Source: Candidatus Colwellbacteria bacterium GWA2_46_10 (GTDB taxonomy: Bacteria > Patescibacteriota > Minisyncoccia > UBA6257 > Colwellbacteraceae). From it: a stretch of DNA of 31,911 nt. Positions within the stretch are counted from its first letter, which is position 1. Every line of letters begins with the position of its first letter. Below the pieces are notes generated by a model. That model searched no databases and was not told the origin of the DNA. It saw only the letters and a program-made list of their open reading frames with translations. The position numbers were made by a program, and so were the translations under genes. The stretch is from positions 1-31,911 of the forward strand of contig MHIS01000015.1 in the NCBI GenBank assembly GCA_001817635.1, given 5' to 3'. Positions 6,156-24,639 of this stretch are shown here, piece by piece.

Positions 6156-6223
6156 TTCTGTTTTTAATCCGCCCAAGCCCGACCTTGTAAAAAAAGTGAC
6201 TCGGGTTGGATTTAGAGCTAGTG

Positions 6224-7444: not shown

Positions 7445-8785
7445 ATGCAGCGTGGTCTATTCAGGAAAACAATCCTTCTTCTTGGTGACTGGGCTGGACT
7501 ATATCTATCCCTGTTTTTGCTTGTTCTGATTCGTTACGGAAACGATTGGGAAGCTCAATGGTCCAATCACTTCGTGCCTTTTTCCCTACTCTTCCCATTA
7601 TGGTTAGTGGTTATCTATGGAAGCTACTTATACGAGACGCGCTTCTTCCGCCCGGGAGTGGATACTTTGCGGGCTATGGGTGCAGTCGTCTTTATTTCCC
7701 TGTTCGGCAGCATAAGCATGTTCTACCTATTCCCTCCCGGGTTAATCCAACCCAGACGTAACCTAGTAATCTTCGCGGCTATATTCGGGTTGATCCTATC
7801 AGCCTGGCGTTTCCTCGCCTACAAGGCGGTACGCACACGCGTCAAAACAAACGTTCTGTTCTTGGGTAGTAATCCTGAGATAAAAGAGCTGGTTAAATTC
7901 TTCAAAGATAACCCGGAGCTTGGATATGCAAGCATGGGCACATTCGCAAGTGACCAAAAAGGCATAAATCAGGCATTAAAACTCTTGGAAGGAGGCGACG
8001 TAAACCTTTTGGTCATGGAATCTTCGTCAAAATCAACGAGTAGGGATAGAAGTACGTTCTCACTACTCGCCAGCGGCATCACCGCTATTGACTTAGAGGA
8101 GTTTTACGAAAGGTTATTGAACAAAGTTTCTCCCGAGATGCTCGATGAGTCGTGGTTCATACGCAACTTAGAGGGAATAAACCTGGCGGCATACAGATTT
8201 AGCAAACGCTTTATAGATATCGTAGCTGGAGCATTAGGTATTATTCTTCTTGCCTTTCTTTTCCTTCCCATAGCAATACTCATCAAGCTAAATTCTTCTG
8301 GGCAGGTAATATTTACCCAAAAGCGAGTTGGGAAAAATGGGAAAATCTTCCCAATGTATAAGTTTCGCACTATGAAAGTGCTTTCCGACGATGGTTCCGC
8401 CGAAACCGGAGAGGCAAAATGGACTCAAAGTGAAGACGTTAGGATTACTAGCATCGGAAAACTCCTCCGAATAACAAGGGTGGATGAACTTCCTCAATTC
8501 ATTAACATCCTAAGGGGTGATCTAAGTTTAGTCGGCCCAAGACCAGAGCGACCAGAGTTGGTTAAGAAGTTAGAGGCGGCTATTCCCCACTACAATATGA
8601 GACATCTTATTAAACCGGGTCTTACCGGCTGGGCTCAGATAAACTACCGATACGGCAGTTCTATCAAAGATGCCCACATTAAACTCCAGTACGACATCTA
8701 CTACGCCAAGAGAAAATCTCTGGTATTAGATTTCGCGATTATGCTAAAAACTATACGGATTGTTGTCTTGAGATCAGGAAGATAG
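7445..8785 (+). CDS. Priming polyprenyl glycosylphosphotransferase (WcaJ/WbaP-like sugar transferase)
   Basis: N-terminal TM helices and a C-terminal Bac_transf domain with KRFIDI, YKFRTM, RITRVDELPQFINILRGDLSLVGPRPERP and KPGLTGWAQ. Confidence 0.95.
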   Translation: MQRGLFRKTILLLGDWAGLYLSLFLLVLIRYGNDWEAQWSNHFVPFSLLFPLWLVVIYGSYLYETRFFRPGVDTLRAMGAVVFISLFGSISMFYLFPPGLIQPRRNLVIFAAIFGLILSAWRFLAYKAVRTRVKTNVLFLGSNPEIKELVKFFKDNPELGYASMGTFASDQKGINQALKLLEGGDVNLLVMESSSKSTSRDRSTFSLLASGITAIDLEEFYERLLNKVSPEMLDESWFIRNLEGINLAAYRFSKRFIDIVAGALGIILLAFLFLPIAILIKLNSSGQVIFTQKRVGKNGKIFPMYKFRTMKVLSDDGSAETGEAKWTQSEDVRITSIGKLLRITRVDELPQFINILRGDLSLVGPRPERPELVKKLEAAIPHYNMRHLIKPGLTGWAQINYRYGSSIKDAHIKLQYDIYYAKRKSLVLDFAIMLKTIRIVVLRSGR

Positions 8786-9934
8786 CTTCTCTAAAGTTTC
8801 CCTAGCTATTTTTACTAACGCAGAGGTACTGTGGTCCCAGCTGTAGCGCTTGAGCACAAACTTTCTGCCAACCGCACCCAGTTTAGATCTACGTGCTGGT
8901 GATTGAAGTAACCGTACAACTTCTCCGGCAAATTCTTCCGCAGAGACCGCATCTACAATGGCCGGCGTGTTCTCAATCCCGCTACGCCCCAGTAAAGTAG
9001 CTACTATTGGCCTCTCCATAGATAGTGCCTGAAGCACTTTGTTTTTGATGCCAGCCCCGCTCACCATCGGCGCTACAAAAACATCTGATTGCTGTAAGTA
9101 GCTTTGGATTTCCTCCACTTCTCCCGTAACCTTAACTCCTTTTGTTCTGGAGAGAGCACGCACTTTAGGGGTAGGCCTACGCCCTACAACAAAAAACTCT
9201 GTCGAAGGTACATTCTTTTGTATTAATGGCAGTACCTTATAGCAAAACCAAACCACCGCATCTACATTTGGTTGGTAGTCCATCACTCCAGAGAAAACTA
9301 CCCTTGGGGGGTGTGGTAAGCCTGTCTTCTTGGATAGTTTGAAAAAGTCACTATCTACCCCATTAGTTAAAACAGCTGCTTTGCCGCCGAATCTAGAGAA
9401 TACCTTTGCGTCCGCCAGGGAAACCAACAGAATTTTTTCATATAGGTGAGAAGCCTTCCTCTCTATGGCGGATACGCCAACTCCAATTAGCAGATATAAC
9501 CATTTTCCCAGTAGATTCTTTGTTCCAGACGCTAGCGATTGATAGAAGAGAGAAAAACTATCATGGGGAAAGTAAATTGTTGGGTTGTGCTTGATAGCCC
9601 CACCCAACCACGCAAGTCCGAACCCGTCTATAACCAAAACTGTTTCTTTATCGAGGTTGGGTTTAATAAGATTCTTTATCGGTATTCCTAGGAGATACTT
9701 AGCTAAATTGGTTTTCATCTGCCCCAAGGTAAGAGGGTGCGCTTTCGCATTAGGGCTAACCTCTTTCCTCACTTCATTCAGATAATCTCCTTCTTTGGGG
9801 TCAAAGAAATAATGGTACTCGAATTTGTTTCCCATTTTCCGGCTTAGGTTCTTCGTATATTGGTAATGTATCAAGCGACCTCCATCTAGATATGGGGGGT
9901 ATGGTGGTTCCTGACTGATATAAACTAACTTCAT
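8774..9934 (-). CDS. Glycosyltransferase, GT4 family
   Basis: NGVD, FSGVMDYQPNVDA and G.G.KNKVLQAL GT-B signature. Confidence 0.9.
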   Translation of the reverse strand: MKLVYISQEPPYPPYLDGGRLIHYQYTKNLSRKMGNKFEYHYFFDPKEGDYLNEVRKEVSPNAKAHPLTLGQMKTNLAKYLLGIPIKNLIKPNLDKETVLVIDGFGLAWLGGAIKHNPTIYFPHDSFSLFYQSLASGTKNLLGKWLYLLIGVGVSAIERKASHLYEKILLVSLADAKVFSRFGGKAAVLTNGVDSDFFKLSKKTGLPHPPRVVFSGVMDYQPNVDAVVWFCYKVLPLIQKNVPSTEFFVVGRRPTPKVRALSRTKGVKVTGEVEEIQSYLQQSDVFVAPMVSGAGIKNKVLQALSMERPIVATLLGRSGIENTPAIVDAVSAEEFAGEVVRLLQSPARRSKLGAVGRKFVLKRYSWDHSTSALVKIARETLEKLSS

Positions 9935-11061
9935 AGAACTTCTTTATATACCCTTGCTACTTCTCGAGCCTGTTTCTCTATGGAAAAATTGTTCTCGACT
10001 GCGATTCTAGCTTTCTTGCCAAACGTTTCTCGCAGAGCCTTGTTTATAACCAATTCCGTTAATTTTTCTTTTAGTTGATTTTTTGATGGGTCAAACAGAA
10101 AACCATTTTCTCCATTAGTGATAACTTCTCTGGGTCCACCTACGTTTGTGGAAACGACGGCTTTGCCACTCGCCATTGCCTCTAAGTTCACTAATCCAAA
10201 TGTCTCAAAGTCAGACGGACAAACTACTATATCCAAGGCGGATATAACTCTCTCAATATTCTCCCTAAATCCAGTCCAGATTACGCAACTTTTCCAATGT
10301 TCATTTCTTTCTATCGCACTCTTAAGCAATTTAATGTTTCTATCGTCTGCTCTTCTTCTAAATGTATTATCACCTACAAAAAATATCTTATATGGACGTC
10401 CTTCAATAGGTTCATCTAAGGCCTCCAACAACCTCATGTGCCCCTTGAGCTTCTGAAAGCGCCCTATCATCCCTATAAGAGTGCCCCCCTTCGAAAGCTC
10501 TTTTACCAGAGGGTCTGGTTTTACAAGAGGAGAAAATTTATTAGTATCGATACCCAAGTGGATCACCCCTATTTTACCCTTTGCCTTCCTTAAATTTTCG
10601 GGGAGCTTGTCCTGCACGAATTTTGACACCGAAAGAACCCTATCGGCCTGTTTGTATATAGAAGTGAAGGGCCAGAATTTAGGCTGCCACCACCACCACC
10701 CGTGGCAAACCCAAACTATTTTAAACGGTAGCTTGCCAAGCGTTCTTGCGGCGGCCGCGTATACCAATGTCTCTAAATCGTTAACGTGCACTATTTCCGG
10801 TTTAATTTCCCCCATTAGTTTTTTTAAAGAACGGTATGCACCAACGCTCCAAAATGGCATTTTGCCTCTCCTTAGAGACAATCCTGGGATCTCCACTACT
10901 TGCAACCCCATACCCATCGCCAATCCTGCAAGGGTTCCTCCCTTTTTAATAACAACTGTGGGGTCTACTCCATAACCACGCTTTAGTTCCCTAACTAGGG
11001 CAAGCATATTGCTTTCTCCACCCCCCAGCCCATTGAGGGAAGATAAAAAGACTACCTTCAT
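9931..11061 (-). CDS. Glycosyltransferase, GT4 family
   Basis: GGGE, IHLGID and ETFGLVNLEAMASGKAVV (E-x7-E) motifs; ATGA overlap with the downstream GT. Confidence 0.93.
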   Translation of the reverse strand: MKVVFLSSLNGLGGGESNMLALVRELKRGYGVDPTVVIKKGGTLAGLAMGMGLQVVEIPGLSLRRGKMPFWSVGAYRSLKKLMGEIKPEIVHVNDLETLVYAAAARTLGKLPFKIVWVCHGWWWWQPKFWPFTSIYKQADRVLSVSKFVQDKLPENLRKAKGKIGVIHLGIDTNKFSPLVKPDPLVKELSKGGTLIGMIGRFQKLKGHMRLLEALDEPIEGRPYKIFFVGDNTFRRRADDRNIKLLKSAIERNEHWKSCVIWTGFRENIERVISALDIVVCPSDFETFGLVNLEAMASGKAVVSTNVGGPREVITNGENGFLFDPSKNQLKEKLTELVINKALRETFGKKARIAVENNFSIEKQAREVARVYKEVL

Positions 11062-11771
11062 GAAAAAGTCTCTATATCCTCTGGACTAAGTTCTAGAAAG
11101 CCTTCCATGTAACCACTGTTTGACCCACCGTCTATGGAGCGGTAAGCATTCAGACCAATTAGGTTATGCTCGAGGTTTTGATAATCTAATTGCGATTTGT
11201 AGTGCCTAATTAGCGATATCTTCTGATTAATACGCTCTGTTATATCTACAACCCTGCTAACCGGAAGCGCGGTCCACACCTCGTAAGCCCAAATACTCGC
11301 TGACCACTCCTTAGACAACCTAACAGCAATCTTGGCACTAGCCCTGTGGTCTGGATGCCTATCAACTGGTGATGTCGTTAGAATGAGGTCAAATTTACCC
11401 AATTTACTTATATCCTCAATGGCCTTCTCGACATTCTCTCCTAGTTTACCGTCCGGGAAACCAAGAAATTCTAGCTTGCAGTGGTCATGCTTTTCCCATG
11501 CGCTCTTAGCCTCTTTTTTTCTCAGTAGTACTATGTTTTCATATTTCCCCTTAGGATCGCCCATGCCGCCATCTGTGAGGAAAACTATGCAGGCGTTTTG
11601 ATTAGAAGATAGGCCGAGTAGGCTACCCCCACACCCTAGAGCCTCGTCATCGGGGTGAGGAGCCAAAACTAATATATCCTTGCCGGGCAATTTATCAGAC
11701 ACCCTTGGGGGCAAGTGCCCATATCCCATCCAAGCTTTTACGGCTCTTTTTATGTTATGCGTTTTGAACAT
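11058..11771 (-). CDS. PIG-L/LmbE-family deacetylase
   Basis: LAPHPDDEALGCGG and HPDH metal-binding motifs. Confidence 0.93.
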   Translation of the reverse strand: MFKTHNIKRAVKAWMGYGHLPPRVSDKLPGKDILVLAPHPDDEALGCGGSLLGLSSNQNACIVFLTDGGMGDPKGKYENIVLLRKKEAKSAWEKHDHCKLEFLGFPDGKLGENVEKAIEDISKLGKFDLILTTSPVDRHPDHRASAKIAVRLSKEWSASIWAYEVWTALPVSRVVDITERINQKISLIRHYKSQLDYQNLEHNLIGLNAYRSIDGGSNSGYMEGFLELSPEDIETFS

Positions 11772-13212
11772 TATTTAACTTCCCGATAATTCCCACGATG
11801 ACCTTTTTATTGATTACCTTAAATTTTAACGCCAAACCTAGAAAAAGAATCCATGCCAGGGCGCGCACACTAAGATTAATGCCTAAACCTAGGTAATCGG
11901 CTAGCAGATATATCCCATAAAAGACGACTAGGCAAGCTCCAAAGAAAAGTGCTGGGATAGCCAAGTCTTTCAACCAGTTCCAACTTTTTGTTATCACCAA
12001 TGTGGTCAAAAGGCTAGTTGCGTATGCTATAGCCGTCGCGTATGCAGCACCCATCATCCCATATTTTGGCACAAGAAAGAGATTGGCTAGTACATTGACC
12101 CCCAAGCCAACCGAAGTTATTGCTACCAAAGTCCATGTTCGGCTTTCTACAAAAAGCTTACGGCTAGGTATGAAATATAGCCCATATAAAAATACTCCCA
12201 ATATTATCCATGGAACCAATCTTATATTACCCAAGTACAACGCTCCCCCCATAATCTCTATAGCCTCCCTGCTAAACAACCAGACAGAAAGTGCGAGGAA
12301 AGATAGCCACCCAAAATATTCCCTTACAATCGTTCGGTTGTCTTGTCTAAACTGTTCATTCTCATAGTTCTTAAAATAATAAATACTCCACGCTTGGTTG
12401 AACCCCATACTGAACAGGTTGAGCAACAGGGCAACCGCATAGACCACCGAATATAAGGCGACTGAGCTGATGCCCACAAAATGGTTTAAGAAAAAGCGAT
12501 CTATGTTTACCATTCCCCACCAACCAAATCCCGCCAATTGAACTGGCAAACCAAAGCTAATCGACTTGAGGACATGAGAAAAAGAATTAAATATGGGTCT
12601 TATGCTGTGATGGTAGAAAAGCATTAACAAGCTGCCCAAAGCTACAATACTGGTAGCCATCAACTCGCCTGCAATCTTCCCTGAAGCGCTAGCTTGGTAA
12701 AAAAACATTGAGACTACGATGAACAATACGGTTACCCCCGCCTGCCATAGTTTACTGACTAAAAAGGACTTACTAAGCTCTTTGGTAACCAATAAAGTTT
12801 GGTAGAAGTTAATAATAGCGCTGAGGTAGGCAATTACTATTGTAATGGCTATTAATGTTGAATCGATGCCCAACCAATCTCCTAGGTATTTAGATACCCA
12901 TACACCAAGGACCACCAAGACTATTCCGCTCAGCAACAGGTAGCTTGTTAGCGAGTTTAAATAATTTACCCTCTCCAATTTGCGCTTGAAGGTAAAGTAA
13001 AAGCGACCGGCAGCTGAGCCTATCCCTTGCTGAAAAATGATATTGAGGAAGCCGAAAAGACTAGTAAGTATAACTATGATCCCCACCTGCTCCACAGATA
13101 CCATGCGAGTATAAAATGGGAGCATCAAAAAATTGACGGATTGAGCTAACACATTAGCTAATGTGTAGTAAAACGAGTGGTTAAGAATATTTATTATGTG
13201 ATACATAAACAA
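11755..13212 (-). CDS. Second oligosaccharide flippase (Wzx-like)
   Basis: A 485-aa polytopic protein with LPFYTR, DRFFLNHF.G...VALYS and NLFLVPKYGMMGAAYAT motifs. Confidence 0.88.
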   Translation of the reverse strand: MFMYHIINILNHSFYYTLANVLAQSVNFLMLPFYTRMVSVEQVGIIVILTSLFGFLNIIFQQGIGSAAGRFYFTFKRKLERVNYLNSLTSYLLLSGIVLVVLGVWVSKYLGDWLGIDSTLIAITIVIAYLSAIINFYQTLLVTKELSKSFLVSKLWQAGVTVLFIVVSMFFYQASASGKIAGELMATSIVALGSLLMLFYHHSIRPIFNSFSHVLKSISFGLPVQLAGFGWWGMVNIDRFFLNHFVGISSVALYSVVYAVALLLNLFSMGFNQAWSIYYFKNYENEQFRQDNRTIVREYFGWLSFLALSVWLFSREAIEIMGGALYLGNIRLVPWIILGVFLYGLYFIPSRKLFVESRTWTLVAITSVGLGVNVLANLFLVPKYGMMGAAYATAIAYATSLLTTLVITKSWNWLKDLAIPALFFGACLVVFYGIYLLADYLGLGINLSVRALAWILFLGLALKFKVINKKVIVGIIGKLNNVQNA

Positions 13213-13235
13213 TTAACAACCTTGGGTGGACAGCA

Positions 13236-13922
13236 TTATTGGGTCTCCATCCCCTGTTTTATCCAAAAGTGGATACCCGCATGACTCCCGACACCCTCTT
13301 CTTCGTCATAGTTAGCAGGTTTGTTTATCCTCGTATATCCATATATGGCTTTGTCGTCCCAATCGTGGGCTCCTATGATTGGAACCCTTTGAAACAGTAG
13401 ATTCACTATGTCACCCCTCAGGTGGATACCGGCATCTACGAATGCATAGTTGTACTTATCCAGACCGAGCTGATCTAAAAGAGCCGATAACTCAATCTTA
13501 TACGCACCTGCTCTGGGATTGCCTCCTCTTTTCACAAGCCCACCTACTCCAGTGACATCTAGCTCTGCGTCTATTACGGGTTGTTTCATCTCGTACATAA
13601 TCAGTTCCCAGTTCTTGCTGCCCTTAAACCTCTCCTTGCACTTAATTGCCCAGCTATCGTCAGCTACCTTAAGTTTTTCTGCCAACGCCACGTCCTTTGT
13701 AAAAATCTCCACAGAAGCAACCTTATCTAACTGTTTAAGGAAAGACTCTGTGCCATCTCCCATGCCGAACTCAATCATCGATTTAATGTTTTTCTCCTTA
13801 AAGAGTATCTCGTGGGCCCTTACGTGGTCTATCCATAAAGTGCCCCTTAAAATACCAGCGACCTTCTTAAGTGTTGGCACTCTATGGATAAGTTTAACGA
13901 AGTTATAGGCGCTCAATCTCAT
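13236..13922 (-). CDS. Class I SAM-dependent methyltransferase-like protein
   Basis: IEFGMGDGT motif I-like segment, VASVE, YAFVDAG and AHD. The ATG at 13922 is preferred over the TTG at 13976. Confidence 0.6.
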   Translation of the reverse strand: MRLSAYNFVKLIHRVPTLKKVAGILRGTLWIDHVRAHEILFKEKNIKSMIEFGMGDGTESFLKQLDKVASVEIFTKDVALAEKLKVADDSWAIKCKERFKGSKNWELIMYEMKQPVIDAELDVTGVGGLVKRGGNPRAGAYKIELSALLDQLGLDKYNYAFVDAGIHLRGDIVNLLFQRVPIIGAHDWDDKAIYGYTRINKPANYDEEEGVGSHAGIHFWIKQGMETQ

Positions 13923-14035
13923 TTGAGTTCTATCGGCTAATTTACTATATCCACTCTGGATATGGCAGTAAAGCAAAGCGTCTCTTTGGGCCAGCCAGTA
14001 TCCAACAATTCCAAGAGGAGATAAAATAGCTATAC

Positions 14036-14818
14036 ATGTATTTATTTAACGACACCAATAAGGCTCTGTGGGGATCCAAGAGAGTGCTTAAACACTATTC
14101 CGAACAGGAGCATATCCAAAAAGCAGAAGCATCTATTCTTAAGCTCCTTAAGCCGAAGCTGTCGGAAATGAAGATGCTAGACATAGGGGTTGGGGCTGGA
14201 CGCACCACTATGCACTTTGCCCATTTAGTAAAAGAGTATATGGGGATAGATTACGCGAAACTCATGATCGACTCCTGTAGAAAAAAGTTTTCGGGATACC
14301 GTTTTGAAACCATGGACGTGCGCAATATGAGTCCTTTACCTAGTAACCATTTCGACTTTGTTCTCTTCAGTCACAATGGCATAGACAATATGCCCTACCA
14401 AGATAGGGAAAGGTCTCTGCAAGAAATCGCCAGGGTTCTAAAACAATCGGGAATCTTTGTTTTCTCTACCCACAATATCCATAGCATAGAAGCGCTTCTT
14501 TCCACTATTTCACCAGTAGATTCACCGCCTAGAAAAACACTAAAGTGGGTCAAAAATGGTTTATTCATACTAATGAATGGTCACCCATCGAAGCTGAAAA
14601 ATCTACCATACGTGGTAGTAAATGATGGAAGTTGGAATTTTCGTCTGCGCACGTACTACATAGATCCCCGAATACAATTACGAGAGCTGGAGGCGCTAGG
14701 CTTTAGGAACAGTCTTTTATTTTCTGGCTCCACCGGAGAAAGAATCGCCAGAAATCATTTGGCAATGGATAATGATCCCTGGATTTATTTCCTGTGCACG
14801 CATCAGTTACCCCTTTAA
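14036..14818 (+). CDS. Class I SAM-dependent methyltransferase
   Basis: MLDIGVGAGRT, GIDYA, FDFVLFS and EIARVLKQSGIFVFS motifs. Confidence 0.92.
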   Translation: MYLFNDTNKALWGSKRVLKHYSEQEHIQKAEASILKLLKPKLSEMKMLDIGVGAGRTTMHFAHLVKEYMGIDYAKLMIDSCRKKFSGYRFETMDVRNMSPLPSNHFDFVLFSHNGIDNMPYQDRERSLQEIARVLKQSGIFVFSTHNIHSIEALLSTISPVDSPPRKTLKWVKNGLFILMNGHPSKLKNLPYVVVNDGSWNFRLRTYYIDPRIQLRELEALGFRNSLLFSGSTGERIARNHLAMDNDPWIYFLCTHQLPL

Positions 14819-16246
14819 GGAAGCTATCGGCTTCATTCTCGCTACTAAGCGCATTAGCCTATGCTCTTTCATCACTTGGATAACCTTATCGAGTGACTTG
14901 AAGTTGCTGGATATCTGGCCAGATATTCTGCCCTTTCCGCTACGATACAGTTTAATTCGCTGTCCTTCTAAAATTTTGTGTGCCTCCCCCTCAGAGATGT
15001 TAGCTTCTCCCATATGCTTATCCAGCATTCGCCCAACCCCGTGGTTGGTGGTCCAGTAGGTATTTTTTACGCCCTCGTCTGCGCAACCAATATAACTTTC
15101 TGTGCCTAAAGCGCCTGGAATCAGTATTGGCTGCCCAGTTACGTTAAATGGTGCTTTTCTCCACTGATCTTTTGGCAGAGCTACGTTTGTGCCATTGCGA
15201 TGCAGAATAAACTCTCTACTATCAATGTTCTCCTTGGTCACCATGTCGTGTGCGGGATCAAAAAGTAGGTCTGTTTTTATTTTCCTTTTAGCTACATCCT
15301 CGCATGTATTAATAATCTTGCTCATAATGGCCAACCTATTCACGAAACCGAAATTGCCCGCTAACGAAAAAGCGTCTAGAAATCTTCTTCCCTCTACACC
15401 GTCGGCCGGCAGATTCCCGAATCCCTTGCGAACAATGTAAGTTCTCCAGCGCAACAACCAACTCTTAAAAGATAGATCTCTCAAAAAGTGCCACCATAAC
15501 TGCATAAGCAACATGGCTAAATACTTAAATGGTTTACGCTTCAACTCTCCCCTCGCAGAATAATGAAGATGCGTTTGTGACCCCATCTTCAAAGAGTCGG
15601 TGTGTAAAATAAAGACTAGTTGCTTTTCCTTTAGGTTCAATTCTCCCGCCAATGCTTGGTTTTCAATACGATCTATATAGTGAAGCTCCAAAAAGTGGTT
15701 TCCCCCACCTAACACGCCCAGACAGTACCTCCCCCAGTTAATTGCCGTTGGAGGAATAATATCTTTGACCTCATCACTGCTTATGTGAGTTGCCAAAAAG
15801 TTGCCGCTTTTCTCTATTCTTTCTAACCAGTACTGGGGAAGTTTAAATTTCTCTATTGCCCATGCTGCTCCTCCCCGAACAGCTTTTATCATGTCTTCTT
15901 GGCTAAGCTGCGGTTTTCTCCAAGGCCTACCTGGGACCTCTTCAGCAAGTTTTCTGAAAATAGTGTCTATTTGCTCTGAGGTAAGGTCATTAACCGATAG
16001 ATCCGTGGTTAGCATGGCTATGCCACAATTAGGAACCCCAATAAGGCCAGGAATGATCGTATTGTTTGTTGCCACCGCGATGCCAATAGGAACCTCTGCT
16101 CCTCTCTTGTAATGAAAGTCGGGCAGGACAGCTATAGGACTAATAACATTCTCTGCCCTACTTATTTCTCCGATCATTTCCCTGCTAGGATCCTCGGGAA
16201 TCAGGTCTGGATGTATAAACCACTTTATTTTGTCTCCTTCTACCAT
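14807..16246 (-). CDS. rtcB: Divergent RtcB-family ligase (GTP/Mn-dependent 3'-phosphate/5'-OH ligase fold)
   Basis: PDFH, NCG, LGGGNHFLE, LHTDS, AHD, HRNG, IPGALG, HGVGR and the C-terminal P..SLKG appear in RtcB order. Confidence 0.9.
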   Translation of the reverse strand: MVEGDKIKWFIHPDLIPEDPSREMIGEISRAENVISPIAVLPDFHYKRGAEVPIGIAVATNNTIIPGLIGVPNCGIAMLTTDLSVNDLTSEQIDTIFRKLAEEVPGRPWRKPQLSQEDMIKAVRGGAAWAIEKFKLPQYWLERIEKSGNFLATHISSDEVKDIIPPTAINWGRYCLGVLGGGNHFLELHYIDRIENQALAGELNLKEKQLVFILHTDSLKMGSQTHLHYSARGELKRKPFKYLAMLLMQLWWHFLRDLSFKSWLLRWRTYIVRKGFGNLPADGVEGRRFLDAFSLAGNFGFVNRLAIMSKIINTCEDVAKRKIKTDLLFDPAHDMVTKENIDSREFILHRNGTNVALPKDQWRKAPFNVTGQPILIPGALGTESYIGCADEGVKNTYWTTNHGVGRMLDKHMGEANISEGEAHKILEGQRIKLYRSGKGRISGQISSNFKSLDKVIQVMKEHRLMRLVARMKPIASLKG

Positions 16247-17163
16247 GTTTTTTTGTTTAACCGATTAACGATTTCTTCTAGCTGGTGTTCTCTCATGTCC
16301 CTTAATGCCGGCAACCCTTCCGCTAGGTTTAATAGTCCAGCTATGTCTTTTTCTCCCATCTGTCTCGGCAACCTGTTCCCATTCAACTTTGTGAACCACT
16401 CACGGTAAGCAGCAAGAATAGATTCATTGTTCATAACATTAAGCAGTACTTGTGCGTTCAACTTTGCAGACTCGCCTAAGATTATGATCTTGTCTATATG
16501 CTCGGGAGTGGTAAAAACATTCTTGGGCACTACTCTAACTATATTTCTGGAAATATCCCCTGTTCGGCCAACGCTTCTTATTTCCTCAACATGAACAGGA
16601 TTCTTCTTCTCCAAATGTATGGCTGTAACTAAAGGTAACACCATTTGGGTCTCTGGGTTCAGTAAAACGAAGTTGTCTCCTCCAAAAGAGGCGTTTTGAC
16701 CGCCCAGCAACATAGTTATCAAGCTTGACTTACCCGAACCACCACGCCCAACAACTAGGATGGTGCGCCCGTCGCATCTTACTAATCCGCCATGAACGGG
16801 CACATATCCATCTTTTTCATAACGGCTAAATAGCGGGAAAAGTATTACTATGTAGGTGAGCCATGCAAGCACGCCGGGATGTTCTACTGGGGAACATCCG
16901 TACCTGAGTTTGGCCAGTAAATTAGGCTTATAGTTGACGGTTATCTTGTTCCCATCAACTCTAATTGAGCTCTCTGGTCTGGGACGATTGAGGTGAATGG
17001 CCTCTTTGGGACCCTTTTCTAAGAGAACATTGATCTCTGTGTCTACGATAGATGACTCCGATAGATACGGGGTAAACTCGTTATCTATATAAGTAGAAAA
17101 TGGCTCGATATCGGTCCTTACTAGATAACTCTGTCCCCAAAATTTTAGTTTTCTCTCTGTCAT
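16240..17163 (-). CDS. HPr kinase-like P-loop protein
   Basis: VHGGLV...ILVVGRGGSGKSSL...FGGDN resembles the HprK C-terminal kinase-like domain, with a degenerate DD motif. Confidence 0.65.
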   Translation of the reverse strand: MTERKLKFWGQSYLVRTDIEPFSTYIDNEFTPYLSESSIVDTEINVLLEKGPKEAIHLNRPRPESSIRVDGNKITVNYKPNLLAKLRYGCSPVEHPGVLAWLTYIVILFPLFSRYEKDGYVPVHGGLVRCDGRTILVVGRGGSGKSSLITMLLGGQNASFGGDNFVLLNPETQMVLPLVTAIHLEKKNPVHVEEIRSVGRTGDISRNIVRVVPKNVFTTPEHIDKIIILGESAKLNAQVLLNVMNNESILAAYREWFTKLNGNRLPRQMGEKDIAGLLNLAEGLPALRDMREHQLEEIVNRLNKKTW

Positions 17164-18197
17164 CTTTTGCGGCCCGTTAGCTTTTTATAAACTACGACTA
17201 GCTTTTTCCTTATTCTAATAGGATCTAATTTAGATAAGTACTTTTTCCTATATATACTAATTGAAACTAGGGGTTTAACTTTTTTAGTCCATCTTAGTTT
17301 GTATGGTTCTATCCCACGGCCCAAACTGAATCTTTCGTATCCATCCTTTCTAGCTTTCTCAAGTAGAAACCAAAGCAAGACTTTCCCGGGAGAATATTTT
17401 GCGTATTTATTATTATAAGTTGGAAACTCATATATATACTCCTTCCCGAACTTATAACCAAAATGCCACGCGATGGTTTCATTGCTAGCATTTAACTTGT
17501 AAAAACTAACGTAATCCTCGTTGATGGTTTTAAAAAAGTCTGATAATGATTTTGATCTTGAAATAAGCGGTTGGGCCCCGAAACTACGCCAGAGATCTCT
17601 ATATGCATTTATAAACTCGTCCCAATCCTCCCTAGACGCCTTAACTAACGTAACCGGTCCATAGTTTTTTGTAAGCTTAGCTACATTAAGCTTGACATCT
17701 TCAGCTAATTTGCGACTGATAGAGGTGTCTTTCTCTTTTAGATTTACCCAAGGGATGCCCTCTTCTTGCGTGAGGTCAACTGCCCAACCGACATTCTTCG
17801 CTAACTCCACTAATTCATTGGCCTGTTCTACGTTTCCCCAAAAGCGAAGCTGAACAACGTCCCATTTTTCCTTACCCAAAGAAGCTATAAAAGATTCTCC
17901 CGTATCCCCATTAATAGCAGGCCACTGCATCTCATCGTAAAGACATGGGACATCTCCCACACTAAATAGCCTCCTTAAGCCCCAACTTCTCTTGATATGA
18001 AGAGGGATATATACATTCTCGCGTAGGGAGTGCCAGATTCTTAACTGGGGATTGAAGCTTTTGACCCAATGGTTTAACCAACTCGGATGGTTAAAAAAAC
18101 TAGATTCTATGCCACTATTTTCCCAAGCTTTGGTCCATACTTCTAGACTAGGTAAGCTCCTTAATATCTCCCACTCTTTATCTATGACTTTTGACAT
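17160..18197 (-). CDS. GNAT-family transferase (CelD/BcsL, Acetyltransf_6-like)
   Basis: FFNHPSWL..W and C-terminal YSPGKVLL...GYERFSLGRGIEPYKLRW pattern. Confidence 0.82.
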   Translation of the reverse strand: MSKVIDKEWEILRSLPSLEVWTKAWENSGIESSFFNHPSWLNHWVKSFNPQLRIWHSLRENVYIPLHIKRSWGLRRLFSVGDVPCLYDEMQWPAINGDTGESFIASLGKEKWDVVQLRFWGNVEQANELVELAKNVGWAVDLTQEEGIPWVNLKEKDTSISRKLAEDVKLNVAKLTKNYGPVTLVKASREDWDEFINAYRDLWRSFGAQPLISRSKSLSDFFKTINEDYVSFYKLNASNETIAWHFGYKFGKEYIYEFPTYNNKYAKYSPGKVLLWFLLEKARKDGYERFSLGRGIEPYKLRWTKKVKPLVSISIYRKKYLSKLDPIRIRKKLVVVYKKLTGRKR

Positions 18198-18951
18198 TCA
18201 AGTATAAACGCGAGTATACCGTTTTCTCCACTGGTATGCCATCCAAAGCAGATTCCCTCTCGGCTGCCACTTGAAAGAACTTCTCCATTAAAGGCCAAAG
18301 TAGTTTCTCATCAAGGTTAATGCTGTGTAAGTAGTCTAGAAAAACCATCTCGTTCTTTTTGAGTTGCACATTAATGCCTATTCTCATTTTCCCCCTAATG
18401 GTTTCTAACCATTCAGATACTACCAAATCTACTAAGTCGTACATCGGCAACCCATCTTCTCTCATCATTTCCCAGTCAGCTATAAATAGCATTTTGCTAT
18501 TTGTGTCCCATAGTAGGTTGTTAACCGTGAAGTCTCCGTGCTCTAACACCGATTTATTATTCATGGTTGCCAGCGCCAATTTCGTCGTCCATTCTATTGC
18601 TTTGTTAATCGCCAACATCCTTTCTTCGCCTCGCAGGCTAGATACTGGTCTAACGTTAAGATACTTATATGTGTTGATTAGCCAGCGTTCTTTTACAACT
18701 TGTTTTACCGGTTCAACCACGCTACTTATCAAATTCGCCGGTAAAAGTTTGTGGACCTTCAGTAAGTTGCTCCATTCTTTAGAAAGTTTTCTTTGTGCGC
18801 CCTGCTTGCTTGAGGCTTTTATAAAAACTTTTGCGCCAGTTGTGCTAATTACCTCTCCCGCAAACCAATGTCTTTTCGGGTTATAGACAACATGTTCCAC
18901 CCCAAACTTCCCAATAGCTTCTAAGGCTTCTATTTCGCTTTTGCTAACCAT
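18178..18951 (-). CDS. Aminoglycoside-phosphotransferase/choline-kinase-like (APH) kinase
   Basis: VFIK lysine, HGDFTVNNLL catalytic loop and ADWE metal-binding motif. Confidence 0.85.
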   Translation of the reverse strand: MVSKSEIEALEAIGKFGVEHVVYNPKRHWFAGEVISTTGAKVFIKASSKQGAQRKLSKEWSNLLKVHKLLPANLISSVVEPVKQVVKERWLINTYKYLNVRPVSSLRGEERMLAINKAIEWTTKLALATMNNKSVLEHGDFTVNNLLWDTNSKMLFIADWEMMREDGLPMYDLVDLVVSEWLETIRGKMRIGINVQLKKNEMVFLDYLHSINLDEKLLWPLMEKFFQVAAERESALDGIPVEKTVYSRLYLNVKSHR

Positions 18952-18998
18952 CTTTTTGAGATTCTTATATGAAGCTTAGTTTGCTAAGATCGCTGTAA

Positions 18999-21287
18999 TT
19001 AATTGGCTGCTACTGCACTCCAGCCTCGGGCCTTGAATCCGTTAAGTCCTCCTGTTAGAACTTCCTCCATTGTGTCTATCGGCTCGCTGATGAGGCCCGA
19101 TCCCATTTGTGAATCGATGATTTCTCTAAAGGTTTTCTCTATCTTGATCGCCTGCTTCAAAACCATCTCAAAACTGGACGCGTCCTGAGTGTTATACATA
19201 TAGTTAAAGTAGTTGCTGTATCCCTCTCTTATCTGCTGGATGTCTTCTGGGGTAACGGGTTTTTGTCCGCTCGCGTAGATGTTTTTAAGCATTTCTAGTG
19301 TACCCCTACTCCCATCAAAGTCATATGGCGCAAAGATGGCGAGAGAATCTATATCCATTCCCTTCCCCTCTGGCTCAAGCGCCACTGCGGCATTAATCAC
19401 CCCCCCAGCCTCTTCAAACTTACCTTGGGAAACCAGGTTGTCTGCTAAAGATACCCTTACATCCTGCCTGTTAGGCGCCAACTCAACTGCCTTCCTTAAG
19501 TGATCTTCCCCAGCTACGAGATAATCTGTGTTTTGATTTGCCCTGGATGCGGATTTATAGATAAGCCCCATGGCCTGGTGCGTCCGCGCTTTATTAACTA
19601 CTACACCCAACGCTTCTTCTCCTAGCGGGATCATTTGTGGGAAGGCCTGGATAAATTCATCCTTAGAAAACCTTGTGGGAAACCCAGAGAGAATAAATAT
19701 TCTTAGCTCGGATTGAATAAAATTATTCGGTGTCGTTATTGTCTTGATCTGACCTGGATCAAAATGCCCCTTATTGAATGTATTCACTGCCACTCTCATC
19801 TGATAGTACGGGATTACACACAACCACACAAAAGCAGTCACAAAAACTATACTCAAAGAAAAGGCGCCCATAGCATAGAGAAAACGGGGGGTACTCTTCT
19901 CGAGTATTTGCGTGTCTTTTTCCTCGTGCGCATAGAAGGTGTACCCGACAAAGGCAAAAATACTAAATAGGGGAATGTACATAGCAATTTGATCAAAGAG
20001 AAACAGATTTTGCACGAAGTAGGCTACAGCTATCCCACCAGTAAAGAGCAACGTCCAGAATTTCTCTCTACTGTCCAAATGATTGCTCCTTGCTACATCC
20101 TTCCCTAGGGTCTTCCAGAATATAAGACACCATATTAATAGGTAACCCAGCAACCCCAACAATCCGTTCATAACCAACACGTCTAGTATTTTGTTGTGAG
20201 CCCTATCGAACCAAGCACTTTCATACTTTTGGATAGCCGGGTCGTAAAATTGGTTGTGCGCGTTTATATATTCCTCTTGGCCCCATCCCAATAGAGTTCT
20301 TGTCCAACCTACGTTTTGCGGATTAACAGCATTCATACTGATACTGAGGTTGATCAAACGGGTCTGAGTGGTTGCATCGGTGCTGGAAATCCTGGCCAAC
20401 CTGTCCAGGCCAGGAATATTTTGCCAAAACGCGTTATCTCTTGTAACTACAAAAGCGCCTCCGAAAATCAAGATTACCAAAAGTGTCCCTATCACCAAAT
20501 TCTTAACTTCAACGGATTTACCTAGTAAGTTGAACTTTTCGACTCCTCCTTTAATCAGGGAAATACGTAGAAGGACTATAAATAAAGCCACGATCAATCC
20601 CAGAATCACTCCCCTGGTCTCCGTTACGAAGATGGCCAGAAGGGAAAGGGCTACGACCGTCCTACTCAAGAATGGCCACGTTTTATTTTTATCCAAAACC
20701 CCTACCATTAGTGCAAAATAAAGGACAAAAAGTGCGTATGTAGCCACAAAAGTGGGGTTCCCGAAGAACGATCCATCTGGGCGGATATCTCCGTAGGCAA
20801 ACCTATCCATTAAGACGTCTCCCATAGCGACAATCCCCACAACGAGATTCAGCTTAAAGAAACTGAGCCAATCTTTTTTCTCAAAGAAAAGAGACGTGCC
20901 AAGGAAAAAGAACAGCATATAGAAAGATATTAGGAATCCCTCTGATCGCTCTATATCCCCCCAGAAAGCACGGTACGGATTATCCGCAAAGAAAGTACTA
21001 AATAGCGCTAAGACAGAGAATATAATTAACACCATTGTCAGCGGGTTGTTGATCTTTTTCAAACGAGAGCGGGAAAGTATGTCCTCTCCCCAAAAAACAC
21101 CCATAAGCAGAAAAATGCTGGCTATGGCCATAACCAATCTTATAAGCATTGCTTTCCCAAAAACGTATGGGAATAAAGTGCTGTGGGTGACTACCAAAGG
21201 CGTAAGAGCAAGACTTAGTAAGGACAACTTAACTAGCTTGGTCGCATTTAACACGCTGTTCATAAATGGTCTAAATTTCTTCACCAT
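18999..21287 (-). CDS. O-antigen ligase/O-oligosaccharyltransferase (Wzy_C) family membrane protein with C-terminal TPR-like repeats
   Basis: Many TM helices; FFGNP.FVA.Y, TETRG, GWGQE and DRAHN motifs; helical TPR-like tail. The start was moved to 21287 because the track start at 21311 lies inside the upstream terminator. Confidence 0.88.
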   Translation of the reverse strand: MVKKFRPFMNSVLNATKLVKLSLLSLALTPLVVTHSTLFPYVFGKAMLIRLVMAIASIFLLMGVFWGEDILSRSRLKKINNPLTMVLIIFSVLALFSTFFADNPYRAFWGDIERSEGFLISFYMLFFFLGTSLFFEKKDWLSFFKLNLVVGIVAMGDVLMDRFAYGDIRPDGSFFGNPTFVATYALFVLYFALMVGVLDKNKTWPFLSRTVVALSLLAIFVTETRGVILGLIVALFIVLLRISLIKGGVEKFNLLGKSVEVKNLVIGTLLVILIFGGAFVVTRDNAFWQNIPGLDRLARISSTDATTQTRLINLSISMNAVNPQNVGWTRTLLGWGQEEYINAHNQFYDPAIQKYESAWFDRAHNKILDVLVMNGLLGLLGYLLIWCLIFWKTLGKDVARSNHLDSREKFWTLLFTGGIAVAYFVQNLFLFDQIAMYIPLFSIFAFVGYTFYAHEEKDTQILEKSTPRFLYAMGAFSLSIVFVTAFVWLCVIPYYQMRVAVNTFNKGHFDPGQIKTITTPNNFIQSELRIFILSGFPTRFSKDEFIQAFPQMIPLGEEALGVVVNKARTHQAMGLIYKSASRANQNTDYLVAGEDHLRKAVELAPNRQDVRVSLADNLVSQGKFEEAGGVINAAVALEPEGKGMDIDSLAIFAPYDFDGSRGTLEMLKNIYASGQKPVTPEDIQQIREGYSNYFNYMYNTQDASSFEMVLKQAIKIEKTFREIIDSQMGSGLISEPIDTMEEVLTGGLNGFKARGWSAVAAN

Positions 21288-21298
21288 TATACCTAAAA

Positions 21299-21330
21299 TA
21301 CAGAAAACCACCTTTCGGTGGTTTTCTGTA
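21299..21330 (-). terminator. Strong terminator hairpin after the S-layer-like gene
   Basis: TACAGAAAACCACC-tttc-GGTGGTTTTCTGTA: a perfect 14-bp stem with a GAAA tetraloop on the minus strand. Confidence 0.88.
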
Positions 21331-21417: not shown

Positions 21418-23439
21418 CTACGCTTCTGCTCCGTCGTTGAGGTAGATCGAAGGAGTAACGAAGTCCCCAAGATTGAGGGCATATCCTAGATCACCATCAC
21501 CCTGCGCCAAAGCGTAGAGGATAACGTCTAAGGATACTGAGTGGAACGCATCCACTAAGTCAACTGCTCCGTCACGAACATCCACTACAATCTGGAACCT
21601 CTCGGTTTCACCATCGAGGACGGTGAATGAACCACCAGCCTCGGTTGCTCCAGTAAGTGTTGTAATGTCCGCCAATAGAGTACCAGTACCGGTAACTCCA
21701 AGGTCGTGTTCTGTACCAACTCCAGCAGCAGTAGATCCTGCGTCATCGGGGTCAGTACCATCGATGAAGATGCTTCCATCCCAAGCGGTCACATCAAACA
21801 CGATAGTGAAAAGACCTGAGTCAGTTCCAGTAGCAGCTGCAGCTGTTGCCACGGCTGTTGGTGTCCCAACTAGAGCGACGTCAAACCCAACATCGCGCAT
21901 CTGAGACGCAGCACCAGTTACAGTACCAGTCTCATCGCCATCAGCTAGGTCTTGTCCAGACTCGTCCTCGGCATCAAAGCTAGCGAGGTCCATCTGGGTT
22001 TCACCAAAGTTGGCGGCGATTGTGTCTCCAAGAGCAAGGTCACCAGTATCGGTGATACCGTACAGGTCTAGCTTTACGAGAAATTCGTAATCTTGACCTG
22101 CCTCAAGTGTAAGACCCATGTCATCGAAGAAGTAAGTCTCGTCTGCCCCTACAGTGGTACAGTTGCTGTTAGCAGCTTGCTCCTCGACACAGTCGTTGGT
22201 CATGTCAACGTTGTCCACCTCATCTCCATCTACGAACAGGGAGATACCGGCAACCATGTCATCAACATTGTCATTGCCAGTAACATCAAAGTTGATTGGG
22301 AGAGAGTCAAGATCCACGTCTGATGTTCCTTCTATCTCTACGTTGAATGAGAGAATAGAAGCATTGTCCGTGTTGTCAGTGGCGTGCACGTTAACAAGGT
22401 GCGCGTCGTTGACAGTATCTTCATCCTCACCCTGAGTAACTTTGAAGAGGGTATCTGCTGCAGTACCAAACGACTCAAATGAGAAAAGTGTTACTGCCAC
22501 AGTTGGATCCTCAGAAACACTTGCTCCATTGGCGTCCACGAAACGAACTGACGTAAAGTCAACGTCCCATGTTTCACCAACATCGTTAGTGTCTATGTTG
22601 CCATCAGCTAAAATAGCTACTGTAAGCTCAACCGTTGATCCGGCTTCTGCCACAGCATCGTCCAATGAGATCGTTGAAGTCCATTCATTATCCTCATTGA
22701 ATTTATCGGCGTCCTTACGTCCAACTTCCTCTCCGTCTAGAAAGACGGCGACTTCATCGGCGTAATCCTCGAAGTCTTGATCAGCGGTACCTTCATCGAA
22801 TACAAGGCGGACTGCCGTGAAATCGAGGTCGGAACCATCCTCTACATCTATCTCAAGACCGGCTACCTCTACTTCATCGTCCTCACCAACCTCTTCGTTG
22901 GAAAGACCGGAAATCAGAGAGTAGCTATCAACTGAACCGTCACCACCAGTTAAACCGGTGCTGCCAGTTCCAGTTCCCGTTCCTGTCCCAGTTCCAGTAC
23001 CAGTACTGCACATCGTGCCGTACTTAGCCTGTGAGATAGGACCGAAGTAACCAACTGCAGGTGATACTCCGTTAGCTGCCTGCCATGCGGCTACAGCTGC
23101 CTGAGTGATCGTACCAAAGAAACCGGTTGCTCCGCCTGAGAAGGTGAAGTGGCCAGTACCCATAAGGTAAGTCTGCAAAGCGGTTACGTCTGCACCAGAC
23201 ATGTCTAGAGTTAGACTTCTGGTCCAAGCGTAGCAAGTAGTGCTAGTACCACCCGATAGTGCCGCTAGCTGGGCGGTTAAGGTAGCAATTTGTGCCTGCA
23301 GGTCGCTGATTGCGTCAGCTCCGGCTGCGGGTACTATGCTCATACCGCCAGCTAGTGAGACTAAAGTGGCAAAAGCAACACTTGCTGTTGCAAATTTCTT
23401 AGTTAATTTACTCACTTTATTTATTTTTGTTTTCGACAA
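21418..23439 (-). CDS. Secreted acidic S-layer-like/surface protein with an N-terminal coiled coil and PG-binding-like domain, a (TG)n linker and beta-sandwich-like domains
   Basis: Signal peptide; ISDLQAQIATLTAQLAAL coiled coil; L.L...G.DV.ALQ.YL...FG.ITQAAV..WQ...G....GYFGP PGBD pattern; TGTGTG linker; very Asp/Thr-rich body. The start is TTG at 23439 or GTG at 23415. Confidence 0.85.
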   Translation of the reverse strand: MSKTKINKVSKLTKKFATASVAFATLVSLAGGMSIVPAAGADAISDLQAQIATLTAQLAALSGGTSTTCYAWTRSLTLDMSGADVTALQTYLMGTGHFTFSGGATGFFGTITQAAVAAWQAANGVSPAVGYFGPISQAKYGTMCSTGTGTGTGTGTGTGSTGLTGGDGSVDSYSLISGLSNEEVGEDDEVEVAGLEIDVEDGSDLDFTAVRLVFDEGTADQDFEDYADEVAVFLDGEEVGRKDADKFNEDNEWTSTISLDDAVAEAGSTVELTVAILADGNIDTNDVGETWDVDFTSVRFVDANGASVSEDPTVAVTLFSFESFGTAADTLFKVTQGEDEDTVNDAHLVNVHATDNTDNASILSFNVEIEGTSDVDLDSLPINFDVTGNDNVDDMVAGISLFVDGDEVDNVDMTNDCVEEQAANSNCTTVGADETYFFDDMGLTLEAGQDYEFLVKLDLYGITDTGDLALGDTIAANFGETQMDLASFDAEDESGQDLADGDETGTVTGAASQMRDVGFDVALVGTPTAVATAAAATGTDSGLFTIVFDVTAWDGSIFIDGTDPDDAGSTAAGVGTEHDLGVTGTGTLLADITTLTGATEAGGSFTVLDGETERFQIVVDVRDGAVDLVDAFHSVSLDVILYALAQGDGDLGYALNLGDFVTPSIYLNDGAEA

Positions 23440-23833: not shown

Positions 23834-24502
23834 TTAATATTCGTCAAAGGCATCCTTTCCGCCCTCCTTGGCTTGGGCTAGGAAGAGGACCTCATTTATA
23901 TCCCCCTCGGCTCTCTCTACCCCTCCCTTAAGAGCTCTCACGTACGAGTACGGGCCTCTCTCCCCTATACGCTCCGCAGATCCCCTATCTACCAGGGCAG
24001 ATATATCGTTTCTTAGGGTTCTCTTGCTTACCTCCGGAAAATTCCTTGAGATATCGGCTGGACGGCAACCATTAGGGAATTGCCGTATAAACTCTAGAAT
24101 TTCCGTTTGCCGTTTATCTGGCTTAACGGAAAATTGCCGTTTACTTACCTCTTTTTCCTCTTGCCGTTTAAACGGCAAGGTATTTTTCTGCCGATTAAAG
24201 AGCTTTTCTAGGTTAATTTCTACCTTTTTTTCTGGAAACTCCATAAGTTCCATCATTCCTGCAAGATTACGGAGCTCTCTTATTAAAACCTCACTATTTA
24301 CCCCACTAATCTCCTCTATAGCTTTTCCTAGTTTGATAAGGCGCCTAGCTCTATCAATAGCCGCTTGATCCAGAAACGAGACGATCTCTACCGCCACTGC
24401 CTCCAATTCTTTCCGCAGATAGGAAAATTCAACTTGTGAGGCTACGCGGTAAAGGGCAAAGGCAATATCATGCGCCAATCCGGCAATTTGGTCCCTATCC
24501 AT
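23834..24502 (-). CDS. Helical N-terminal domain plus C-terminal DeoR-like winged HTH protein
   Basis: KRQTEILEFI...ADI...FPEVSKRTLRNDISALVDRG..ERIG wHTH. The ATG at 24502 (MDRDQ) is preferred over 24538. Confidence 0.8.
   Translation of the reverse strand: MDRDQIAGLAHDIAFALYRVASQVEFSYLRKELEAVAVEIVSFLDQAAIDRARRLIKLGKAIEEISGVNSEVLIRELRNLAGMMELMEFPEKKVEINLEKLFNRQKNTLPFKRQEEKEVSKRQFSVKPDKRQTEILEFIRQFPNGCRPADISRNFPEVSKRTLRNDISALVDRGSAERIGERGPYSYVRALKGGVERAEGDINEVLFLAQAKEGGKDAFDEY
24063..24193. repeat. Intragenic array of TTGCCG sites at exact 27-bp period, with inverted copies and a perfect 20-bp palindrome
   Basis: TTGCCG at 24080, 24107, 24134 and 24161, CTGCCG at 24188; CGGCAA at 24063 and 24173; palindrome CTTGCCGTTTAAACGGCAAG at 24160-24179. 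Confidence 0.92.
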
Positions 24503-24507
24503 TGCCG
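24481..24507. promoter_or_regulatory. Inverted repeat (CGGCAAT-N13-ATTGCCG) overlapping the probable wHTH start codon
   Basis: CGGCAAT at 24481-24487 and ATTGCCG at 24501-24507; the CAT (minus-strand ATG) is at 24500-24502. Confidence 0.55.
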
Positions 24508-24639
24508 CAAGATTACCAAAGGGCGGCAGGAAGCACAACTTCCGATATGTGGAAAATCTGTGGAGACATCACACGTCAAACTTGGAATTAACTCTCTGTG
24601 CGGATATTTGAGGCATATGATGCCATCCAGGCCCTCCCA

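Follow-up and report, generated by a model that had tools for sequence, protein, structure and literature searches.

The known activities of RtcB are confined to ligating or capping nucleic acids: a 2023 review of RtcB describes nucleic-acid roles only, and our search of the RtcB-targeted literature found no description linking RtcB to glycan loci or to HprK-like kinases. In the RtcB structures from Pyrococcus horikoshii (Pho), the first manganese ion (Mn1) is bound by C98, H234 and H329, whereas the second (Mn2) is bound by C98, D95 and H203 and holds the beta and gamma phosphates of guanosine triphosphate (GTP). H404 serves as the nucleophile, E206 and K480 recognize the guanine, N202 touches the 5'-OH, and R238, R190 and Q194 grip the phosphates of the 5'-OH strand; the R189A mutant of Escherichia coli (Eco) RtcB seals 200-fold more slowly. 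Here, we compare these enzymes with an RtcB-family protein of 479 amino acids (aa) encoded at 14807..16246, on the minus strand, of a 31,911-nt stretch (contig MHIS01000015.1; hereafter the window) of Candidatus Colwellbacteria bacterium GWA2_46_10. The window makes up contig 15 of a genome of 507 kb estimated to be 91% complete, and the phosphoglycerate mutase it encodes is 83% identical to one labelled Candidatus Colwellbacteria, in keeping with a Patescibacteria (CPR) host.

We favor, with moderate confidence, a reading of the sequence in which this protein is a glycan-pathway RtcB paralogue and not an RNA ligase, and would form a phosphodiester on a glycan after priming by a kinase and activation with guanosine monophosphate (GMP). 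This reading is the most economical because the nucleotidyl-transfer core is kept, the grip on the RNA strand is lost, a kinase is translationally coupled to the RtcB-like protein, and the neighboring genes build a lipid-linked glycan.

A glycan-associated RtcB clade

The RtcB-like protein matches PF01139 along nearly the whole profile (positions 5-426 of 426; E 4.3e-70; 237.5 bits against a cut-off of 27). Its AlphaFold2 (AF2) model has a pLDDT of 93 and, in a Foldseek search, aligned to the RtcB-GMP/Mn structure 4DWQ with an E-value of 1e-34; all 16 significant matches in the PDB were RtcB. The protein is the last product of four overlapping minus-strand genes, which encode, in order, an APH-fold kinase, an Acetyltransf_6 GNAT, an HprK/PEPCK-fold (phosphoenolpyruvate carboxykinase-fold) P-loop kinase and the RtcB-family protein. 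The overlaps are 20 nt (APH/GNAT), 4 nt (GNAT/HprK-like) and 7 nt (HprK-like/RtcB), and the open reading frame (ORF) coordinates and overlaps agree with the original prediction, which gave the middle overlap as ATGA.

Alignment to P. horikoshii RtcB and within the clade described below also bore out the residues listed in that prediction. H402, C74, N183-H184, H215 and H333 are kept, and five motifs are altered: DINCG to VP-NCG, HN to HD, HRKG to HRNG, HTGSRG to HTDSLK, and EEAPGAYK to GQISSNFK. The His nucleophile and the Mn1 ligands (Pho H404; C98, H234, H329) correspond to H402, C74, H215 and H333, which are kept in all 29 clade rows; the catalytic-core residues invariant across the 29 are D43, H45, C74, N183, H184, E187, H215, H333, R350 and H402. 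Two of the Mn2 ligands are also retained in the RtcB-like protein (C74 and H184, for Pho C98 and H203). The guanine contacts (Pho E206 and K480) are represented by E187 and K478, the latter being kept only in one half of the clade (type A). Judged from these residues, the core for forming His-GMP and transferring GMP to a phosphomonoester looks usable.

By contrast, the Pho residues that bind the 5'-OH strand (R190, Q194 and R238) are W171, C175 and L219 in the window protein. An equivalent of R238 occurs in none of the 29 clade rows and in 47 of the 58 canonical rows, and Q194 is present in 57 of the latter. The Lys of HRKG, Eco R345 and Eco E375 are all substituted in the clade. The clade has in turn acquired an invariant lysine, Lys47, where canonical enzymes have Gly (57/58); among the best 120 database matches, 116 had K47 and 3 had the canonical signature. 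Between H215 and the EG.R motif lie 65-79 aa in 28 of the 29 clade rows, compared with 38-52 aa (mostly 44) in canonical enzymes; the longer stretch accommodates a helical insert of approximately 25-35 residues. In the window protein, this clade-specific insert is assigned to residues 231-275 (15422..15556, minus strand), which are rich in Trp, Leu and Arg and predicted to form a helical hairpin; the AF2 model has helices at 239-254 and 260-272. Type A comprises the 11 non-actinobacterial rows, including the window, and retains Eco R341 and Pho K480, with a Phe in place of Eco Y380. In seven type A rows (again including the window), a new Asp stands beside two of the metal-binding histidines (D217 and D334). 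One clade member, from a Candidatus Eisenbacteria metagenome-assembled genome (MAG) (L012), retains HTGSR, has a segment of 38 aa with no helical insert, and is possibly an intermediate form.

Genomic context was compared across 80 loci fetched from named genomes, using profiles built from the window's own proteins. The glycan-associated clade (29 rows, including the window) is monophyletic (SH-aLRT 99), and the co-occurrence with wzx, glycosyltransferase (GT), APH and GNAT genes that the original prediction proposed to look for was found as a tie to HprK-like and glycan genes, which canonical neighborhoods lack. An HprK-like gene lies within 10 kb in 26 of the 29 clade rows, mostly adjacent and on the same strand, compared with 2 of 58 canonical rows, both from the Moorella group and with the gene 7-9 kb off. 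Matches to Wzx are confined to the clade; GT4 matches extend to nearly every clade row and to two of the canonical rows. The Pfam families tallied beside clade members are GT1/4, DegT, Polysacc_synt_2, PIG-L, APH and flippases, whereas canonical RtcBs neighbor archease and aminoacyl-tRNA synthetases, and no glycan family is among the 25 commonest families beside them.

Clade members with glycan genes beside them occur in Patescibacteria, Vibrio, Sulfurovum, Lachnospiraceae and Actinomycetota. The nearest homologue (L002; 69% identity) lies in a more distant Colwellbacteria-like contig with the same synteny; below it, identity drops to around 33%, and the glycan context persists at 25-33% identity, with an HprK-like gene next to rtcB. 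Gene content at these loci includes two APH genes, a ScmC-like gene, RtcB, GT4 and an ABC exporter (L006); RtcB, a flippase and a ScmC-like gene (L007); a methyltransferase, RtcB, GT9, GT2 and DegT (P0005); Acetyltransf_6, an unnamed 321-aa gene, RtcB, a flippase, PIG-L, GT4 and heptose genes (L009); Wza, Wzz, Wzy, PIG-L, Acetyltransf_6, an unnamed 323-aa gene, RtcB, a flippase, five GTs and ManCBA (Vibrio rotiferianus, L010); and DegT, a dehydratase, RtcB, a ScmC-like gene and GT4 (Terrabacter, L102). Every type A locus contains a PIG-L gene. In high-GC loci (L012, L017, L025 and L051), simple ORF calling suggested RtcBs that were fused or had N-terminal extensions; the HprK-like protein has an ORF of its own in L012 and L051, and thus no RtcB fusion is claimed.

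The relatives of the window have genomes of approximately 0.4-1.5 Mb. No glycan-type RtcB was found in four genomes of the same genus, nor elsewhere among the 60 relatives searched. RtcB was present in 13 of these relatives, and all seven full-length copies checked had the canonical signature; an eighth copy is split, and its first half was read. In a survey of 400 genomes of the phylum, five others had full-length matches, all five among GT4 and Wzx genes. A canonical RtcB occurs alongside a glycan-type copy in two Kribbella genomes and one Lachnospiraceae MAG; in Kribbella pratensis and K. alba (L115 and L116 against L121 and L120), the canonical proteins score approximately 410 bits against the Pfam profile and the glycan-type proteins approximately 160 bits. 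Four Patescibacteria genomes (G448, G137, G358 and G435; loci L111-L114) encode a third RtcB-like subtype with K47, an Asp at the DINCG position and a change of E187 to D; these genes adjoin GT4 and Wzx genes, and profiles detected no HprK-like gene nearby.

Partner proteins and the surrounding polysaccharide locus

The HprK-like protein (307 aa; 16240..17163, minus strand) is assigned from weak profile matches, motifs and model fold. It scores below the NCBIfam cut-offs both for ScmC (TIGR04249; 28 against 125 bits) and for HprK-related kinase A (TIGR04352, HprK_rel_A; 24.9 against 200 bits). The only significant PDB matches of its model in Foldseek were PEPCK (E 7e-7) and the HPr kinase/phosphorylase HprK/P (E 1e-4). 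Conserved features are H124, the P-loop G139xxGxGK145 and D163-N164, with H124, G139, G142, G144, K145 and N164 invariant in 15 sequences. Its Atlas neighbors include HPr-kinase-like clusters, ScmC, and forms fused to a GT2 glycosyltransferase. On the basis of the model matches, invariant motifs and Atlas neighbors, the protein is a P-loop phosphotransferase of the HprK/PEPCK fold, outside the curated ScmC and HprK-related equivalogs. Profiles from the fetched loci were used for this protein because a word-based homologue search returned only two near-identical matches. Querying the PDB with the sequences of the GNAT, HprK-like and APH proteins gave nothing useful.

The APH-fold kinase (257 aa; 18178..18951, minus strand) matches PF01636 at 29.9 bits (cut-off 23.2), with the motifs HGD....N and DWE read in the sequence, and also matches LxmK weakly. 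The GNAT (345 aa; 17160..18197, minus strand) matches PF13480 at 72.8 bits (E 4.2e-20; cut-off 22), a family of the FemAB-like clan to which all of its Atlas neighbors belong; its structural neighbors in the Atlas include FemAB_like. APH and GNAT are separate genes in the window and a single polypeptide in L009, L010, L014 and L015, and the motif region of the window APH protein aligns to the N-terminal part of the fused proteins. These fusions link the functions of the two proteins. Elsewhere in the Atlas, the GNAT fold is fused to Polysacc_deac_1 or DegT, which fits N-acylation of an amino sugar following a PIG-L step. The search for a GNAT came up empty in the clade's actinobacterial half, where the RtcB and HprK-like pair is retained.

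As originally predicted, the cassette lies between an O-antigen-ligase-type gene and flippase and glycosyltransferase genes. On one side is a Wzy_C polymerase/ligase-type membrane protein with a C-terminal TPR (18999..21311, minus strand; PF04932 and TPR_19; multiple hydrophobic segments), followed by a PG_binding_1 protein with a single N-terminal hydrophobic segment (21418..23439, minus strand); both are syntenic in L002. On the other side are a Wzx-type flippase (Polysacc_synt; 11755..13212, minus strand), a PIG-L family de-N-acetylase (11058..11771, minus strand; PF02585, E 1.7e-23), two GT4/GT1 glycosyltransferases (9931-11061 and 8774-9934, minus strand) and a Bac_transf initiating phosphoglycosyl transferase (7445..8785, plus strand; PF02397, E 5.5e-63). 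By Pfam, Bac_transf, the two GT4 proteins, Polysacc_synt and Wzy_C make up a complete Wzx/Wzy-dependent polysaccharide locus within 7445-21311. A second Polysacc_synt/MurJ-like flippase is encoded at 1297-2790 (plus strand).

Convergent with rtcB is a gene for a class I S-adenosylmethionine (SAM) methyltransferase (14036..14818, plus strand; Methyltransf_11 and Methyltransf_25), which shares 12 nt with the 3' end of rtcB. In Sulfurovum (L014 and L015), rtcB is followed immediately, in the same orientation, by a homologue of this methyltransferase gene, and at the P0005 locus a methyltransferase comes before RtcB; the link between rtcB and a methyltransferase is recurrent and not constant. The 246-aa protein encoded at 13236..13976 (minus strand), which is conserved beside rtcB in L002, gave no match in a Pfam scan; it has GxGxG-like and FVDAGxH motifs, and its Atlas neighbors are mainly phage proteins, together with Methyltransf_24 and GXM-like methyltransferases. 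From its feature and structure neighbors in the Atlas, it is probably a diverged Methyltransf_24/GXM-like methyltransferase. Further out, a protein with an RNase-like NYN domain is encoded at 24847-25440 (plus strand), 1.4 kb past the PG_binding gene, and is absent from the syntenic stretch of L002. Three ORFs of 234-316 aa belong to no Pfam family (5322-6176, 6224-7174 and 23834-24538, all minus strand). A scan for promoters and terminators found fewer sites than in shuffles of the sequence, an outcome that carries no information.

Proposed mechanism and alternatives

From the observed gene order, families, folds, clade residue pattern and glycan context, we infer each of the following chemical steps and the identities of both substrates. 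The RtcB-like protein would act in the cytoplasm during assembly of the lipid-linked repeat unit, which Wzx would then flip and Wzy polymerize. The HprK/PEPCK-fold kinase, the APH-fold kinase or both would phosphorylate a sugar hydroxyl or a small alcohol. The RtcB-like protein would charge itself with GMP on His402, from GTP and by means of its intact Mn1 site, and hand the GMP to the phosphomonoester to give a sugar-PP-G anhydride. Attack by a second hydroxyl would yield the phosphodiester and release GMP. On the same repeat unit, PIG-L and the GNAT would take the N-acyl group off an amino sugar and put another in its place. The glycan clade, the loss of 5'-OH-strand residues and the retained nucleotidyl core partly support the interpretation originally offered for this locus, and the proposed GMP activation and ligation are consistent with them.

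Several observations weigh against this proposal. The Mn2 aspartate is present in none of the 29 clade rows and in 57 of the 58 canonical rows, and its loss is the main point that the mechanism leaves unexplained. Because the canonical Mn2 holds the terminal phosphates of GTP, self-guanylylation might be impaired, or another donor might be used; D217, D334 or K47 may compensate for the missing ligand. The host genome has a single RtcB-family gene (in a 91% complete assembly), and a second, canonical rtcB, the presence of which had been raised in the original prediction, was not found. The hydrophobic moment of the helical insert is unremarkable, and the insert is not clearly amphipathic; neither net charge nor hydrophobic moment separates the insert or the clade from canonical enzymes, and membrane anchoring by the insert is therefore only an idea. 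The tree derives from a quick search with E. coli RtcB as the outgroup, and has long branches and non-independent rows; independent sequence characters also mark the clade. Lastly, no glycan of known structure is tied to the cassette.

A serious rival, of low though real probability, is that the RtcB-like protein performs capping or activation without ligation: GMP would be added to a sugar phosphate made by a kinase, such as a sugar 1-phosphate from the APH-fold kinase, to give a GDP-linked donor or a GMP-capped glycan, and the product would then be used by a glycosyltransferase or phosphotransferase. The loss of every side chain that would orient the second (5'-OH) substrate fits this alternative, as does the formation of stable DNA3'pp5'G caps by canonical RtcB and the capping of 5'-phosphate ends by Myxococcus xanthus RtcB3. 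Only a single NTP_transferase gene was seen in the host genome, which also favors capping. The APH fold, moreover, includes anomeric sugar kinases. On the other hand, ordinary nucleotide-sugar genes (ManC and NTP_transferase) stand beside the cassette in Vibrio and in L009, and N183, whose Pho counterpart contacts the attacking hydroxyl (though it also serves earlier steps), is invariant in the clade.

It is unlikely that the substrate is a peptide or protein, with the HprK-like protein phosphorylating Ser or Thr and the RtcB-like protein joining that phosphate to a hydroxyl, so as to give a product resembling a peptide made on the ribosome and modified after translation (RiPP) or a glycan-protein phosphodiester. 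Ser residues of HPr and of lasso-type peptides are substrates of HprK-family kinases, and the weak matches of the HprK-like protein are to ScmC and HprK_rel_A, which we take to be HprK-like families of peptide-modification cassettes. The weak LxmK match of the APH protein, and the ABC exporter and extra APH genes in L006, point the same way. However, the constant neighbors are glycan genes, and the structural neighbors of the HprK-like protein include PEPCK and GT2 fusions. The window proteins scanned gave no match to PqqD/RRE or radical-SAM families, and a RiPP reading was rejected in the absence of a PqqD or radical-SAM match among them.

It is likewise improbable that the protein is an ordinary RNA ligase, for 3'-phosphate/5'-OH repair or for tRNA, that happens to lie in a glycan locus, possibly as part of a kinase-ligase-methyltransferase unit. 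Such a role would suit the sole RtcB-family gene of its genome, an intact fold and nucleotidyl-transfer core, and the proximity of a kinase, a ligase and a methyltransferase. Yet the contacts to the RNA strand are lost, the glycan context recurs in several phyla and is missing from the canonical controls, and some genomes carry a canonical copy as well. The methyltransferase gene is convergent and missing from the syntenic L002, which disfavors the RNA-repair unit that had been put forward as the alternative to glycan modification. The original prediction noted that archease, rtcA, rtcR and Ro genes were lacking from the window; for archease and RtcA this extends to the host genome (91% complete), in which neither was found, whereas RtcR and Ro were not the subject of a genome-wide search. 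Very unlikely is a role in handling tRNA for a Fem-like GNAT that would aminoacylate an amino sugar from aminoacyl-tRNA: Acetyltransf_6 belongs to the clan of FemAB-type aminoacyl-tRNA-dependent transferases and FemAB_like is among the Atlas neighbors, but the RNA-binding residues are lost and the actinobacterial half of the clade keeps RtcB and the HprK-like protein with no GNAT detected.

Significance and comparison with known systems

A broader proposal, which we hold tentatively, is that an RtcB-type enzyme with a dedicated HprK/PEPCK-fold kinase makes phosphodiesters of surface glycans, using GTP to activate a sugar phosphate. Taken jointly with it, and offered just as cautiously, such a route would amount to RNA-ligase chemistry on carbohydrates, yielding teichoic-acid-like or phospho-substituted glycans without a CDP- or UDP-activated donor. 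Were the clade to act on glycans, ligase chemistry based on a His-nucleotide (His-NMP) intermediate would extend to carbohydrates, phosphate links in some surface polymers would be explained, and a possible new enzyme for joining phosphorylated sugars would be at hand. It would also correct a widespread annotation: the system is spread over several phyla and annotated throughout as RNA ligase, with named sources calling clade members RtcB or tRNA-splicing ligase. An ultra-small Patescibacteria genome would then devote four genes to this modification.

The window protein resembles canonical RtcB ligases (P. horikoshii PH1602, E. coli RtcB and human RTCB; PF01139) in its full-length fold (TM 0.80 to 4DWQ), His nucleophile, Cys/His/His Mn1 site, His and Cys of the Mn2 site, active-site Asn, and Glu and Lys guanine contacts. 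It differs from them in lacking the Mn2 Asp and equivalents of R190, Q194 and R238, and in the replacement of the HRKG Lys, Eco R345 and Eco E375. The clade as a whole differs in its new invariant Lys47, its helical insert of 25-35 aa, and a genomic context of glycan genes in place of archease, RtcA or tRNA functions. RtcB capping enzymes (E. coli, producing DNA3'pp5'G; M. xanthus RtcB3, acting on 5'-phosphate) show that enzymes of this family can hand GMP on to other phosphate monoesters and go no further; their substrates are nucleic-acid ends, whereas the context of the window suggests the phosphate of a sugar or glycan, and the residue signature differs.

In fold, in Walker A motif and in a conserved His upstream of the P-loop, the HprK-like protein agrees with HprK/P, ATP-dependent PEPCK, ScmC and HprK-related kinase A. 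Unlike ScmC and HprK-related kinase A, it scores far under the NCBIfam cut-offs, carries the acidic pair D-N, and has no PqqD or radical-SAM partner; it also differs from the HprK and ScmC systems in always being paired with an RtcB-like gene.

Known routes to phosphodiester-linked glycan substituents that use CDP- or UDP-linked donors include LicA/LicC/LicD, TagF-type enzymes and the Stealth hexose-1-phosphate transferases. The window system, if the glycan-phosphodiester reading is true, would share with them a surface-glycan phosphodiester formed in the cytoplasm after a kinase step. They employ a separate nucleotidyltransferase and phosphotransferase, whereas here a single His-GMP enzyme would perform both functions, and the phosphate would originate on the acceptor side.

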